From a virus (lineage: Duplodnaviria > Heunggongvirae > Uroviricota > Caudoviricetes): a stretch of 14,579 bases of DNA. This document shows, in pieces, positions 5,255 to 9,670 of the stretch. Each line of letters opens with the position of its first letter. Positions within the stretch are counted from its first letter, which is position 1. A program made the position numbers and the translations under genes. The notes under the pieces are model-generated. The model was not told the origin of the DNA, did not search any database, and saw only the letters and a list, made by a program, of their open reading frames with translations. The DNA lies in IMG/VR virus record IMGVR_UViG_2529293240_000014. One strand, 5' to 3'.

Positions 5255-5941
5255 TCACTCCTTCTCTTCTTTACCGTAGTGGAGTTGACCAATTTTGATA
5301 AGAGGGCGTCCCTGAGATTTGCGGTGTAGATTGGTATCGCGCAGAGAATACACACAGCCACAATATTCCTGCTGATAGAATTTTTCGCGCTTGCTGATTT
5401 CAATCATACGGGACGAGCCGCCCTGCTTGCGCCAGTTATAATCCCAGTACACCATGCCCGGATAATGCGCGACGGCTCGCCGCCCACAGTCGTTAACCTG
5501 CTGCATATTTTTCCAGCGAGAAATGCCCAGTGAACTGCTGATCACACTGAAACCATTTTCAGCGGCGTACAGCGCTGTCCGCTCAAAACGCATGTCAAAA
5601 CACATGGTGCAACGGATCCCTCGTTCGGGCTCCCATTCCATTCCTTTGGCTCGTTCAAACCAGTTGTCTGTGTCGTAATCAGCATCAATAAACGGCACGC
5701 CGTGTTGTTCAGCAAAGCGAATATTCTCATCCTTACGAATTAAATACTCTTTCTGAGGATGAATGTTCGGGTTGTAGAAAAAGATGGTGTAGTCGATTCC
5801 CGAGGCCTGAAGCGCCTCCATCACCTCACCGGAACATGGAGCACAGCAAGAGTGCAGTAGTAGTTTGTTTGCCCCGTTTGGGAGCTCCAATTTGGGCCGT
5901 TTGAAATCAGCAACTGTCATAAATATGTTTATTGGGGTCAT
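5255..5941 (-). CDS. queH: QueH-like epoxyqueuosine reductase (DUF208 family), 228 aa
   Basis: Translation has the DUF208 hallmarks: [11 protein letters not shown] near the N-terminus, [23 protein letters not shown], and C-terminal QEYCGCVYS. No obvious SD before either candidate start (5941 or 5920). Confidence 0.8.
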
Positions 5942-6088: not shown

Positions 6089-6445
6089 TTATTCAGTTCT
6101 GGATTTTGTCGCCCTGCGTATCCGCGCTTTCGCGTTACGCTCAATCTGTATCAGCTTTTCTATATTTCTCCGCCTTTCCTGTTCCTCCTGGCGCAATAGC
6201 CTTACATCATCTGCCAGTCTGGTTTCTCTTTTTGCCACAGAGAGCATCCAGTCAAACGGCTCCACAACCGCACCGCAGATTTTACAGCGGACCTGACGCT
6301 CTTTTTCGTCAACCCGTACAGAGGCGTGATGGCAATATGGTCTTTCCGATGGCTCATAAAGAAAATTAACCTGATTACGAGGGTCATCCTCTTTTATCGG
6401 AAATAAAACGATATTGCTTAACTCATCTTCTGGTTTTATTTCCAT
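6089..6445 (-). CDS. Hypothetical protein, 118 aa, putative zinc-ribbon plus basic coiled-coil tail
   Basis: ATG at 6445 preceded by AGGAGAGGAG. Translation MEIKPEDELSNIVLF...PYCHH...CKICG...; C-terminus rich in R/E/K/Q. Sits in the lambda ninB position; no family recognised. Confidence 0.55.
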   Translation of the reverse strand: MEIKPEDELSNIVLFPIKEDDPRNQVNFLYEPSERPYCHHASVRVDEKERQVRCKICGAVVEPFDWMLSVAKRETRLADDVRLLRQEEQERRRNIEKLIQIERNAKARIRRATKSRTE

Positions 6446-6502
6446 GCTCCTCTCCTTTGATGCGAATGCCAGCGGTAATTGAAGCCTGATAGCTAATTTC
6501 AT

Positions 6503-6925
6503 TCACAGTATCGCCTCCTGAAAATTACCCTGATAGAAAGCCAGTACACGCTGCATAGCTTCGCTCTTCCGGCACTCGCGACAGATTATATTCAGGCGCC
6601 TGTCGTAGCGGCGTATTTCTCCGTCAGGTAATGACCAGATAAGGTCCGGATCAACAACAACCGGTTTCCTCACCTTTACTCTCGAGAGTTTTTTGCGGGC
6701 GCTTTGCCAGTCCTTGCGAGCCTGTTCAGACGGGAATAAGCCGTAGCCAGAATTATATACATCACCACTTGCGACCAGTTCTATGCATAAGCGACCGACA
6801 GACGCACGACTGATACCTGTTTCATCGGACAACTGCCGAATCGTGACCCGACCGTCCTGATGCACGAGTTCCACAATTCGCGTCTTCAGTTCTTCCCGCT
6901 GTTCGGGAGTAAAAGGTTTCGCCAT
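6503..6925 (-). CDS. Ren-like protein (lambda Ren family, extended), 140 aa
   Basis: ATG at 6925 preceded by AGGAGG. HTH-like segment TIRQLSDETGISRASVGRLCIELVASGDV and C-terminal motif CRECRKSEAMQRVLAFY resembling lambda Ren (KECRQSAAMKRVLAVY). Position immediately after the DnaC/P-like gene. Confidence 0.6.
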   Translation of the reverse strand: MAKPFTPEQREELKTRIVELVHQDGRVTIRQLSDETGISRASVGRLCIELVASGDVYNSGYGLFPSEQARKDWQSARKKLSRVKVRKPVVVDPDLIWSLPDGEIRRYDRRLNIICRECRKSEAMQRVLAFYQGNFQEAIL

Positions 6926-6939
6926 AAATCCTCCTGAAA

Positions 6940-7686
6940 CTACTTAACAACCCTCGAATGGCTAACATTCGGACGCCAGCTCTCCCAGTTAAAATTCACC
7001 CAGCGCCCGCCGTTCATGACCATGCGATCCATCACCCGCTCGCCGAGCAATGTTTTCATCACCTCATAGTTCAGGTTTGTCAGCATCCCCACGCTGCGCA
7101 TCGACGCTGTCCGGCGATCAACAATCTGGTGCAGCACCACCTGCTCGTTTTTCGTCTCGCGCTGAATGCCAATTTCATCAAGAACCAGCAGATCCACTTC
7201 GCACAGCTCCCGCAAAAATTTTTCGCCTGACTGCCCGTCGTCATAGCTGGCGTGCAGGGCGCTCATAACATCAGCCACGGTAACCACAATCACTGTCTGA
7301 CCGTCTTTCAGCAGGCGATTCCCGATAGCTGCCGCTAAGTGATTCTTCCCGGTACCAGGTTTTCCGCTGAACGCAAAATTTGTACACCCGGTCATCAGTT
7401 CATCGGCGATGGATTTCGCCTGGCTTAACGCGTATCGCTGGCCGTCGTTCTGCACCTGGTAATTCGCAAACGAGCATTTACGGTGCAACGGCTGGATGCC
7501 TGAGCGATTCAGAATTTTTTCCACCCGCAACTGGCGATTCAGGCGGTTGATCTCCTCGCTACGTTTCTGGCCTTCAGCAAGTTGCCACTCGCGCCACTCC
7601 GCTACCGTTCTGAATGGGGCGGTTACATGTGGCGGGGTCAGTCGGCGGATGCGTTCCAAAACGCCGCCTGTCGCAATATTTTTCAT
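6940..7686 (-). CDS. DnaC-like replicative helicase loader (IstB-like AAA+ ATPase), 248 aa
   Basis: Walker A FSGKPGTGKNHLAAAIGNRL and Walker B DLLVLDEIG; overall DnaC-like. Start lies 4 nt after the upstream gene's stop. Confidence 0.9.
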   Translation of the reverse strand: MKNIATGGVLERIRRLTPPHVTAPFRTVAEWREWQLAEGQKRSEEINRLNRQLRVEKILNRSGIQPLHRKCSFANYQVQNDGQRYALSQAKSIADELMTGCTNFAFSGKPGTGKNHLAAAIGNRLLKDGQTVIVVTVADVMSALHASYDDGQSGEKFLRELCEVDLLVLDEIGIQRETKNEQVVLHQIVDRRTASMRSVGMLTNLNYEVMKTLLGERVMDRMVMNGGRWVNFNWESWRPNVSHSRVVK

Positions 7687-7692
7687 GGTCCG

Positions 7693-8475
7693 TTACCCCC
7701 TGAAGCCTGGCGGGATCGCACTGTCCGGCAACGAGACGGTGTTAACCTGTCGGAGCAACGTCTCAGGCCGAACACCTTTCGGCGCGAACAGGCCCTGGTA
7801 TTCATTGGCGATGCTGTGTCGAATCACCTGCTCAGGTGTAAAACCCTGCTGACGGAATTTTTCCAGTTCCCGTATCGCCCCGTTAGCGCCCTGCTCCGTT
7901 CGAATCGGTTTTCGCAATGCCTGTCTGAACCGGACCCACTCATGCCAGAGTGTTTCCGGCAACCAATCGGGCAGCTCAATAGCCTCCGGCTCGAATTTTT
8001 TAGACGCTCGTTTTTGGCGAGGGGGATTTAGGGGGAGATCAGTATTTAGATCTTCCTCTTCCTCTGGTAACGCTTTTTGATCCGTTTGTGTAACGCTGGC
8101 AGCGTTACCTTTTCGTTTCAGTTCGCGTATTTTTGTTACTCGCTCGTTTGTAACCGCCCGTTTTTTAGAGCTTTTTCCGTTATGACGTTCAAAGTTAGGT
8201 AGAGAAAGCCCACCGTCATTTTCGACCAGCCATCCAACCTGAATTAACGCATCAGCAAAACCAGACATAAAAGTGATGCGATCTATTGCACTTTTTGTAA
8301 CGCCGCGAGCGTTACAATCTGCATTACCGTCTATCATTTGTTGATCCGCCCATGCCCAGAAGCGAATAACCTTCCCTAATGCGGCATCTGGATCAATATT
8401 CAGAATCTCAGCAAGCCTGAATATTTCCGGCTTATCCGGCGTAATAACCTCGAGCTTTATCCAGTTTGAAGCCAT
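7693..8475 (-). CDS. Phage replication initiation protein (YdaU-like, DUF1376; lambda O position), 260 aa
   Basis: ATG at 8475 preceded by AAGGTGA. Lies between the YdaT-like and DnaC-like genes; carries internal palindromic iteron-like repeats. Confidence 0.7.
   Translation of the reverse strand: MASNWIKLEVITPDKPEIFRLAEILNIDPDAALGKVIRFWAWADQQMIDGNADCNARGVTKSAIDRITFMSGFADALIQVGWLVENDGGLSLPNFERHNGKSSKKRAVTNERVTKIRELKRKGNAASVTQTDQKALPEEEEDLNTDLPLNPPRQKRASKKFEPEAIELPDWLPETLWHEWVRFRQALRKPIRTEQGANGAIRELEKFRQQGFTPEQVIRHSIANEYQGLFAPKGVRPETLLRQVNTVSLPDSAIPPGFRG
8089..8108. repeat. Palindromic iteron-like site TGTAACGC-N5-GCGTTAC, copy 1, inside the replication gene
   Basis: tgtaacgctggcagcgttac is a perfect 19-bp dyad. 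Flanked by half-sites (gtaacgc at 8067-8073, tgtaaccgc at 8149-8157) and an AT-rich stretch at 8110-8170. Confidence 0.5.
8296..8316. repeat. Palindromic iteron-like site TGTAACGC-N5-GCGTTACA, copy 2
   Basis: tgtaacgccgcgagcgttaca; 8-bp arms exact reverse complements. Confidence 0.5.
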
Positions 8476-8487
8476 TTGTTTTCACCT

Positions 8488-8508
8488 TGTAACGCTCGCA
8501 GCGTTACA
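8488..8508. repeat. Palindromic iteron-like site TGTAACGC-N5-GCGTTACA, copy 3, just upstream of the replication gene start
   Basis: tgtaacgctcgcagcgttaca, 13 bp upstream of the ATG at 8475 and overlapping its RBS region. Confidence 0.5.
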
Positions 8509-8552
8509 TTTAACTGATACCGAACAAAACAATCCGGCACGATTAATTTCAA

Positions 8553-8975
8553 TCAATGCACTACGACAGAATCGCCGGGCGACCCACCACCGCTGAAATG
8601 TGCTTTCCGGTAAACGGCCTGGACAGCATCATCATGCGCATCAATTGCCGTACTCAACGCTTCCTGCGCCGCCAGTAATGCACGGCGTTCCAGGGTATCG
8701 AAGATACAGAGTCGGTGACGCAGCTCACGCGGAAGAATTGCCAGAACCGCAGGGATCAGTTTCTGAATTTTTTCCCTTTGCGCTTTCGTTTCACCTTTCA
8801 ACCAACGGTGATAGATATTCTGCTGATTGTTCCAGTCCTTGCCTGGTACCAGAGACAATTCGCCGCCCCCCTGCCGCAGATATTCTTCAGTAATTGCGTT
8901 AGCGACCCACGCCTGCCCTTTTTCGGCTGCCAGGGCTAACAGCACTGATTCGATGTGCTCATGCCTGATTTTCAT
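8553..8975 (-). CDS. YdaT-like protein (Rac prophage family; lambda cII position), 140 aa
   Basis: ATG at 8975 preceded by AAGGTG. Translation MKIRHEHIESVLLALAAEKGQAWVANAITEEYLRQGGGELSLVPGKDWNNQQNIYHRW... matches my recollection of Rac YdaT. The 5' end overlaps the upstream cro-like gene by 17 nt. Confidence 0.6.
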   Translation of the reverse strand: MKIRHEHIESVLLALAAEKGQAWVANAITEEYLRQGGGELSLVPGKDWNNQQNIYHRWLKGETKAQREKIQKLIPAVLAILPRELRHRLCIFDTLERRALLAAQEALSTAIDAHDDAVQAVYRKAHFSGGGSPGDSVVVH

Positions 8976-9186
8976 GAATCACCTTCCCAGGTCGTTTTGC
9001 CTTACGATATTCGTCATAAACTTTGGGGTCGTACTGAAGTTCCCCGCCAGATGCCTCTTGCAGGCGCATCGCGCGACCTTCAGGAACCAGTTCCCCCCAT
9101 GCAGCAATGCTTGCCAGCCTAACTCCTGCGGCATTGGCAAGCTTTGTTTTGCTGCCAAAAAACGCTATAGCATCAATTTTCAACAT
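8959..9186 (-). CDS. Cro/YdaS-like small HTH regulator, 75 aa
   Basis: ATG at 9186 preceded by AAGGAG. HTH-like segment KTKLANAAGVRLASIAAWGE. Transcribed divergently from the repressor gene. Confidence 0.7.
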   Translation of the reverse strand: MLKIDAIAFFGSKTKLANAAGVRLASIAAWGELVPEGRAMRLQEASGGELQYDPKVYDEYRKAKRPGKVIHENQA

Positions 9187-9262
9187 ATCGAGCTCCTTAG
9201 ATTTTCCTAAGGAAACTAGACCGTAGAGAAACCTAAGTCTAAAAAAATTAGAATTCCCTAAT
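9187..9262. promoter_or_regulatory. Divergent immunity-region control region (OR-like) with operator-like sites
   Basis: 76-bp intergenic region. Palindrome TCCTTAG-attttc-CTAAGGA at 9194-9213 and a 15-bp site gtagagaaacctaag at 9223-9237 that recurs inverted at 9743-9757. Confidence 0.5.
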
Positions 9263-9670
9263 ATGAAAAACGAAACCTTCGGTGCTCGCCTCTTACATAG
9301 GCGTAAAAAATTAAAACTGTCTCAGGCCGCATTAGGTAAGCTGGTCAAAGTGGCTCACGTAACAATTTCTCAATGGGAAAGAGATGAAACACAGCCGGCG
9401 GGGAAAAGATTATTCGCACTGAGCCAAGCGCTTCAGTGCTCACCGACTTGGCTTCTTTTTGGGGATGAAGATAAACAACCAGGCGAACCGATCCCGGATA
9501 ATCAGCCAGCCATTCTGACAGAAGATCAAAAAGAGTTACTTCAACTGTTCGACGCACTGCCTGAGTCAGAGCAAAAGGCCCTGTTGTCAGAGATGCGTGC
9601 TCGAGTTGAAAATTTCAACAAACTTTTTGAAGAACTACTCAAAGCTCGCAAAAGAAGCGCAAACAAATAA
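9263..9670 (+). CDS. CI/RacR-like prophage repressor (XRE-family HTH, no peptidase domain), 135 aa
   Basis: N-terminal HTH LKLSQAALGKLVKVAHVTISQWERDETQP. Divergent from the cro-like gene. No SD, so possibly a leaderless or weakly initiated message as for lambda cI from PRM. Confidence 0.8.
   Translation: MKNETFGARLLHRRKKLKLSQAALGKLVKVAHVTISQWERDETQPAGKRLFALSQALQCSPTWLLFGDEDKQPGEPIPDNQPAILTEDQKELLQLFDALPESEQKALLSEMRARVENFNKLFEELLKARKRSANK

Follow-up and report, generated by a model that had tools for sequence, protein, structure and literature searches.

The viral DNA considered here, a stretch of 14,579 nucleotides from IMG/VR record IMGVR_UViG_2529293240_000014 (Caudoviricetes; the whole stretch is called the window below), carries three copies of one palindrome in and just before a replication initiator gene, and the question raised by this locus is which protein reads the palindromes and whether they mark the point at which replication begins. 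Our answer, drawn from comparison of related sequences, is that they are probably binding sites of the initiator's own N-terminal domain (N-domain) and that, together with a neighbouring polypurine tract, they form an origin inside the initiator gene. The sites exist, they are under selection as DNA, they are tied almost exclusively to the N-domain, they change in concert within a gene, and their layout matches that of the lambda origin (ori).

A search of the window for TGTAACGC-N5-GCGTTACA with up to three mismatches, compared with 200 shuffles, returned exactly three copies (8089-8109, 8296-8316 and 8488-8508), with start-to-start distances of 207 and 192 bp; the chance expectation was 0.04, none of the 200 shuffles reached three, and the single further match, with four mismatches, lay 3 kb off. 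Two copies (8296-8316 and 8488-8508) are exact, and the copy at 8089-8109 (TGTAACGCTGGCAGCGTTACC) has one mismatch, in its right arm. An earlier sequence-only reading of this DNA, which had reported three palindromes about 200 bp apart in and before the initiator gene, was therefore right as to the sites, but it ended the first copy at 8108 and gave it exact 8-bp arms, whereas that copy ends at 8109 and has exact arms of 7 bp. The features on which the argument depends are as follows.

7693-8475, minus strand: initiator gene, 260 aa, matching phrog_2509 ('replication initiation protein') at E 2e-87.
8101-8475, minus strand: N-domain coding sequence (aa 1-125), the sole feature inherited with the palindromes.
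8089-8109, site B: dyad reading GGTAACGC-TGCCA-GCGTTACA along the gene strand; it covers +367 to +387 of the initiator gene and codons 123-129 (GNAASVT), where the linker follows the N-domain; the proposed core initiator-binding site of the origin.
8296-8316, site A: exact dyad reading TGTAACGC-TCGCG-GCGTTACA along the gene strand; it covers +160 to +180 and codons 54-60 (CNARGVT), within the N-domain coding sequence.
8488-8508, site C: exact dyad between ydaT and the initiator gene, spanning -33 to -13 relative to the ATG and stopping immediately short of the Shine-Dalgarno sequence AAGGTGA; it may be a third site of the origin or else a roadblock for autoregulation.
8066-8074: extra exact half-site GGTAACGCT (AGCGTTACC on the gene strand), 16 bp past site B and adjoining the polypurine tract.
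8051-8065, minus strand: polypurine tract, AGAGGAAGAGGAAGA on the gene strand, 15 nt, encoding EEEED.
8321-8327: forward half-site of degenerate sequence (gene-strand reading GTAATGC), lying 12 bp before site A.

Of three additional half-sites proposed earlier around the first palindrome, the one at 8066-8074 (given there as 8067-8073) stands, being exact and lying at an offset (+36) shared by 14 of 78 relatives, whereas those at 8136-8144 and 8149-8157 are degenerate (GTTAC; GTAACCGC) and their offsets do not recur in relatives. The degenerate half-site at 8321-8327 was absent from that list. It falls in a 12-bp insertion at site A (8305-8327, codons 50-57) that is specific to the E. coli clade (GNAD-CNARGVT, as against GNAxxVT in relatives), and the insertion duplicates a half-site, as exact GTAACGC in phage vB_EcoS-673R7 and with one mismatch in the window. 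The AT-rich stretch described at the same place is modest (GC 0.42-0.47 around site B); the feature conserved there is the polypurine tract.

The palindromes are a signature of a family. A genome scan with an N-domain profile, taking one genome per species, yielded 80 loci of 43-100% identity, spanning Enterobacterales, Pseudomonas, Burkholderiales, Xanthomonadales, Planctomycetota (isolate genomes included), Verrucomicrobiota/Akkermansia and others; the relatives through which the core GTAACGC-N5-GCGTTAC is conserved across these groups have protein identities of 43-70%. Nearly all of these loci, together with five phages, have one dyad at +149, +152 or +161 of the gene and a second at +338 to +392, the latter, equivalent to site B, being present in 78 of the 85 relatives scanned. 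The family consensus is GTAACGC(T)-N3-(A)GCGTTAC/G, with an A-to-B spacing of 189-231 bp (mode 207). The wide spacing had been held against the lambda comparison; it is real, and it is a conserved trait of the family (189-238 bp across arm classes) rather than an anomaly. In phages TL-2011b and ZX5 and a related prophage, all of E. coli, the N-half of the initiator is only 66% identical, the C-half is different and there is no ydaT, yet the gene has two copies of GTAACGC-N5-GCGTTAC, separated by 209 bp, in the same positions; the dyad pair is also present in Pseudomonas, Xanthomonas and Ralstonia phages (34-47% identity). Site C is confined, among the loci scanned, to an Enterobacterales clade and is missing from most of the family, including wherever the upstream open reading frame (ORF) abuts the ATG; in Escherichia, Mixta, Erwinia, Winslowiella, Yersinia, Serratia and Pantoea it lies at -31 to -43, in intergenic sequence that is otherwise unrelated. 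The family is large and has little annotation: a threshold of E<=1e-3 gives 6800 clusters (50% identity), one of E<=1e-10 gives 4298, and none of 11 members (the window protein and 10 relatives) matched any Pfam model.

The association also holds in the reverse direction. Viral contigs were searched for the exact dyad with its 14 specified bases, blind to any protein, and 80 loci were returned; 106 of 119 exact palindromes fell inside an ORF that matched the N-domain profile or no more than 150 bp from one, two more were in family genes cut by contig ends, and the other 11 were singletons without a nearby partner site. The sequence-only reading had named two outcomes as counting against an origin, a motif scattered over the genome and initiator genes of relatives that are without it; neither was observed.

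Codon use and conservation show, at the level of sequence comparison, that selection acts on the DNA of the sites. Within site A the synonymous choices are nearly fixed, with Val as GTT in 77 of 80 loci (background 0.32), Gly as GGT in 68 of 70 (0.25) and Asn as AAC in 79 of 79 (0.65), and this bias is unchanged in loci with a GC content of at least 0.55. In 16 of 78 loci the reading frame of site B is shifted to a second one (the TL-2011b peptide is VTPTAL, not GNAxxVT), a variant class with GTCAC arms uses a third frame, and site C is non-coding. A comparison of 63 distinct close E. coli sequences shows variation in 3 of 42 arm columns, as compared with 10 of 15 spacer columns and 140 of 569 columns elsewhere. 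Fixed synonymous codons, shifted frames, a non-coding copy and arms conserved relative to spacers together argue for selection on the DNA itself, and conserved arms around a free spacer are the pattern expected of a dimeric DNA-binding protein. It is hard to credit, then, that the palindromes are a by-product of a repeated peptide, GNAxxVT, even though sites A and B of the window share a frame and encode similar peptides (CNARGVT and GNAASVT), for the synonymous codons would not need to be fixed, nor site B to appear in other frames, nor site C to exist outside any coding sequence, and in the structural model described below the site A peptide forms a loop of low confidence. We find it equally hard to see the palindromes as a mere recombination joint between exchangeable gene halves: homology with the YdaU protein of the Rac prophage does break off directly after site B, but a joint leaves site A, the phased half-sites and the concerted specificity switches unexplained.

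If a protein reads the sites, the neighbouring genes of the window have to be considered along with the initiator. The sequence-only reading had the initiator gene right in outline, with its phrog_2509 match, a YdaT/CII-like gene before it and a DnaC-like gene after it, and the surroundings are as follows.

9263-9670, plus strand: DicA-like repressor gene.
8959-9186, minus strand: DicC/P22-Cro-like gene.
8553-8975, minus strand: YdaT/CII-like gene, upstream neighbour of the initiator gene.
6940-7686, minus strand: gene for a DnaC/IstB-like ATPase (YdaV; PF01695, E 1e-19), presumed to be a helicase loader recruited by the initiator.
6503-6925, minus strand: DUF977 gene.

The window sites lie just downstream of the ydaT and cro-like genes, which speaks for the earlier suggestion that another protein such as YdaT binds them. 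That suggestion is not supported by comparison. Among 86 loci that keep the sites, a YdaT homologue is found within 1.5 kb in 7, a YdaV/DnaC-like loader in 13 and the same C-terminal domain (C-domain) in 7, and the upstream neighbours vary widely among relatives (KilAC antirepressor, cytosine methylase, Roi, or none). For the YdaT protein of CP-933P the published binding site is TTGATT-N6-AATCAA, where the cro-like gene ends (PMC9986795), and a look-alike of that site, CTGATTTTCATGAATCAC, is present at the equivalent place in the window, the cro-like/ydaT junction (8965-8982). With a different published motif and no homologue near 79 of the 86 loci, YdaT was rejected as the binder of the palindromes. 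A weaker look-alike, ACGATTAATTTCAATCAA, at 8539-8556, takes in the stop codon of ydaT and lies some 30 bp from site C; the number of look-alikes is not remarkable, since 6 of 200 shuffles reach four matches. A host factor would have to keep an identical specificity from Planctomycetota to Enterobacterales and yet undergo clade switches that track residues of the initiator. We therefore regard binding by YdaT, Cro/DicC, DicA, the DUF977 protein or a host factor as highly improbable. The only constant partner of the palindromes is the N-domain, whose coding sequence holds site A, and on this comparative ground we propose the N-domain as their reader.

This proposal is sharpened by loci in which the arms differ from the common GTAAC form. 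The following classes were found.

GTCACGC-N5-GCGTGAC: 27 viral loci, 20 with both sites, spacing 202-238 bp.
GTCAC-N9-GTGAC: a Vibrio phage.
GTTGCGC: locus L137.
CTAACGC: locus L171.
GTCCGC (site B cluster only): Salmonella phage SPN1S and locus L300.

Within a gene the two sites change their arms in concert, and mixed classes were found in no locus. Setting aside residues encoded by the sites, the GTAAC class is best told apart from the GTCAC class by positions 109, 113 and 116, spaced as i, i+4 and i+7 on a long basic helix; at position 113, 82 of 89 representatives of the GTAAC class have Val, and 22 of 22 from the GTCAC class have Lys or Gln. In the window initiator these residues are T109, V113 and I116 (His at 116 in most relatives), on one face of the basic helix, which suggests, from the covariation of protein and site, that this helix reads DNA. 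A tree test of independent specificity switches counted 17 changes, but on a short and poorly resolved neighbour-joining tree, so that this result is suggestive only. The initiator is divided into an N-domain (1-125), a disordered linker (127-172) and a C-domain (138-260). The AlphaFold2 model of the N-domain has helices at 16-25 and 29-46, a low-confidence loop at 47-58 that is the peptide encoded by site A, a winged-helix-like core of a helix-turn-helix and a beta-hairpin (helices 61-68 and 73-80, hairpin 84-91) and the basic helix at 100-124; structure searches with this model returned mostly winged-helix DNA binders, although the matches were weak. The most divergent members, SPN1S (L090) and L300 (28% identity), are without GTAACGC. 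At the position of site B (about +333 to +375 of the initiator gene in SPN1S) they have GTCCGC twice and then GCGGAC twice, in 11-bp steps, followed by the same purine tract, GAGAAGAGAAG; no obvious site A was seen in either member.

Concerted change also bears on whether the palindromes function as structure rather than as protein-binding sites, that is, as RNA hairpins in early mRNA or DNA cruciforms that signal processing, stability or translation. Each dyad can fold into a stem of 7-9 bp, site C makes a stable hairpin in the predicted 5' leader, the arms are conserved while the loops vary, and nested forward-forward-reverse-reverse half-sites could make an extended stem. Structure alone, however, requires neither an identical stem at two or three sites or across phyla nor concerted changes between sites; the variant GCGTTAG at site A, found in 33 of 78 loci, breaks the outer pair, an unpaired third half-site is common, and the site C hairpin leaves the Shine-Dalgarno sequence free. 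A purely structural role is accordingly very unlikely. The sole terminator-like match was formed by site B and CTTTTCGTTT read antisense (8090-8118, plus strand), and this antisense hairpin is probably a by-product of the A-rich coding strand.

The arrangement around site B is origin-like. Half-sites there are phased by about one helical turn (11-12 bp), with forward half-sites at -12 in 32 of 78 loci and reverse half-sites at +24 in 45 and at +36 in 14, the last being the class of the window half-site at 8066-8074; site A has a half-site at the -12 offset in 8 of 78. A purine run (median 20 nt, typically AGAGAAGAGAAGAGAAGAGAAGA) begins 10-30 bp past site B in the majority of the 179 distinct genes compared. 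In the 60 genes tested the longest purine run averaged 18.3 nt as compared with 10.6 nt after codon shuffling, and in 98 genes from loci with a GC content of at least 0.55 the ratio of AGR to CGN codons for Arg was 188 : 23 in the 20 codons past site B and 206 : 1388 elsewhere in the same genes, so that the purine tract is itself under selection. By analogy with the purine run in the AT-rich part of lambda ori, we propose that the tract at 8051-8065 would be the first region to unwind.

In lambda ori, four dyad iterons at +349 to +433 of gene O are followed, 20 bp on, by an 18-nt purine run, AAAAGAAAAAAGAAAAGA. The window family has in common with it a proposed origin placed midway along the initiator gene, where the linker is encoded (site B at +338 to +392), dyad sites of about 19 bp and a purine run 10-30 bp later (PMC7466680). 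Work cited in that paper has two lambda iterons plus the AT-rich region as enough for unwinding in vitro (PMC7466680). Both initiators are two-domain proteins with a type-specific N-domain and an exchangeable C-domain, and in both systems the helicase-loader gene comes next. Repeated dyad-symmetric sites where the linker is encoded, a trait of lambdoid origins, are represented in the window by site B and one additional half-site (+367 to +410), fewer full repeats than in lambda. Unlike lambda, the family has one or two dyads plus half-sites rather than four contiguous iterons, a second conserved dyad about 200 bp upstream within the N-domain coding sequence and, in enterobacterial members, a third upstream of the gene. 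Its arm sequence is also near-constant across phyla, unlike lambdoid iterons, which differ between close relatives. No homology of the initiator to lambda O was detected (hhalign probability 0.2; no Pfam match), and among PHROG families the O-like match was limited to initiator residues 82-234 (phrog_678). The idea that the origin lies within the initiator gene, as in lambda, which the sequence-only reading had raised, is strongly supported by the comparative evidence. The reading of the element as a lambda-like embedded origin of an unrelated initiator family is likewise well supported by comparison; its distinctive features are the split sites, one of which falls among the codons of the DNA-binding domain, and the near-constancy of the recognition sequence across bacterial phyla.

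Initiators also bind palindromes for another purpose. In plasmids pSC101, F and R6K, dyads are bound by initiator dimers and the inverted repeats overlap the rep promoter, whereas the origin uses direct repeats. The present sites resemble these operators in being dyads and in having one copy (site C) near the start of the initiator gene; they differ in that dyads lie inside the ORF and in that site C adjoins the Shine-Dalgarno sequence rather than a promoter. All sites could, as in these plasmids, be autoregulatory operators at which an initiator dimer blocks transcription or translation of its own gene, with the true origin elsewhere. That all of them are inverted repeats, that site C lies 13-33 bp before the ATG beside the Shine-Dalgarno sequence, and that the plasmid Rep inverted repeats provide a precedent speak for this explanation. 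We nonetheless consider it unlikely, because in every member sites A and B fall well within the ORF, at 150-390 bp, most of the family has no site C, the initiator gene of most relatives abuts the upstream gene and leaves no promoter region, a simple consensus scan found no sigma-70-like promoter in 7600-9400, and the selected polypurine tract and phased half-sites match lambda ori. The more limited suggestion made earlier, that the copy adjoining the ribosome-binding site serves autoregulation, is possible. The separated sites further recall split origins such as phage P4 ori and crr or R6K gamma ori, in which one initiator motif likewise recurs at places well apart, presumed to be brought into contact by looping (pi-mediated in R6K); here, unlike in those origins, the distances are about 200 bp rather than kilobases and all sites are in or beside the initiator gene.

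A working mechanism can be outlined for the preferred reading, in which the N-domain binds the palindromes as parts of an origin. Dimers of the N-domain, through the winged-helix-like core and the long basic helix, would bind each dyad of 19-21 bp, whose half-site centres, being 12 bp apart, both face one side of the helix; more subunits would occupy the half-sites that flank site B with a phase of 11-12 bp. The complexes some 200 bp off, at site A and, in enterobacterial phages, also at site C, may loop to the complex at site B or act as auxiliary or regulatory sites, so that sites A and C could serve loop-assisted assembly, act as roadblocks limiting initiator expression, or do both. Strain from this assembly would open the low-stability polypurine tract beside site B, and the C-terminal YdaU-type domain would then bring in the DnaC-like loader (YdaV) and host DnaB.

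Several points weigh against this reading. The A-to-B spacing shows no signal of helical phasing (R 0.24, unique spacings), and the spacing of about 200 bp may be a mere consequence of the positions of the sites in conserved coding sequence, so that we infer no looping from the geometry. The tract beside site B, although purine-rich, is only moderately AT-rich (GC about 0.45), and in the window one full dyad and one half-site stand by it, as compared with four iterons in lambda. Inverted repeats bound by plasmid Rep proteins are usually operators, not origin iterons. The correlation between residues and sites could be inflated by shared ancestry. In the literature we found no experimental report of binding or origin activity for any member of the family; we also found no description of the palindrome element.

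The comparison with the oriJ region of Rac, which had been suggested as a check, turned out not to be applicable. Rac of E. coli K-12 shares the gene order (repressor, cro-like, ydaT, initiator, ydaV, ydaW), and the C-terminal 123 residues of the window initiator (138-260) are 82% identical to Rac YdaU by BLASTP; the N-domain of YdaU, however, is an unrelated DUF1376 domain, and K-12 ydaU is without GTAACGC dyads. The window initiator is therefore a chimera, Rac-like in 7693-8064 and unrelated to YdaU in 8065-8475 (residues 1-137), and since homology breaks at the polypurine tract by site B, the proposed origin is also a point of module exchange. The linker-coding part of Rac ydaU has repeats of its own at 4013-4076 of L091 (NC_000913.3; genome coordinates 1421512-1421575), GTTCAAAC twice (+394 and +427) and the inverse GTTTGAAC once (+450), which occur nowhere else in the 6-kb region; these are candidate oriJ iterons for a DUF1376-type N-domain.

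Other origin elements were also sought. No DnaA boxes were found near the initiator gene and no direct-repeat array at the initiator locus. Three GATC sequences fall within 46 bp beside site B (8037-8082) and 7 within the initiator gene, as compared with 40 in the whole window; one of the three is not retained in the consensus of close relatives, and we make no claim for the cluster. Downstream in the replication operon, after the DUF977 gene, 6089-6502 (minus strand) encodes a protein of 137 aa that weakly matches a zinc ribbon (phrog_1621, function unknown). At 5255-5941 (minus strand) the prophage early operon has, downstream of the replication genes, a homologue of the epoxyqueuosine reductase QueH (PF02677, E 2e-65), which could be connected with queuosine or 7-deazaguanine metabolism.

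A bolder interpretation can be offered only tentatively, and we regard it as doubtful in its entirety: that this is a very large family, uncovered by Pfam, with a self-referential origin, in which the site is written in the codons of its own DNA-binding domain with a second copy after that domain, the recognition sequence is near-frozen with rare concerted switches, and firing requires communication across about 200 bp. On such an arrangement a change in the site would also change the protein, and the recognition sequence would for that reason be almost frozen from Enterobacterales to Planctomycetota and Verrucomicrobiota. The change from GTAAC to GTCAC with V113 to Lys or Gln would then give a readable recognition code, and communication over 200 bp would be by looping or wrapping rather than through a contiguous iteron array.

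Should the N-domain indeed bind these palindromes as an origin, a 19-bp signature with a purine tract would predict the replication origin at base-pair resolution in thousands of phages and prophages, among them Shiga-toxin phage TL-2011b, the epsilon15-like E. coli phage vB_EcoP_ZX5 and prophages of Pseudomonas, Xanthomonas, Ralstonia and Akkermansia, and a function would be assigned to an N-terminal domain that has no Pfam model. The overlap of a binding site with codons of the domain that binds it is unusual, and the natural specificity classes, with candidate residues 109, 113 and 116, provide a system in which the co-evolution of initiator and site may be followed. An origin at this position would also account for the exchange of N- and C-halves of initiators at the point marked by site B and the tract; the initiator is itself modular in the same way as those of lambdoid phages.

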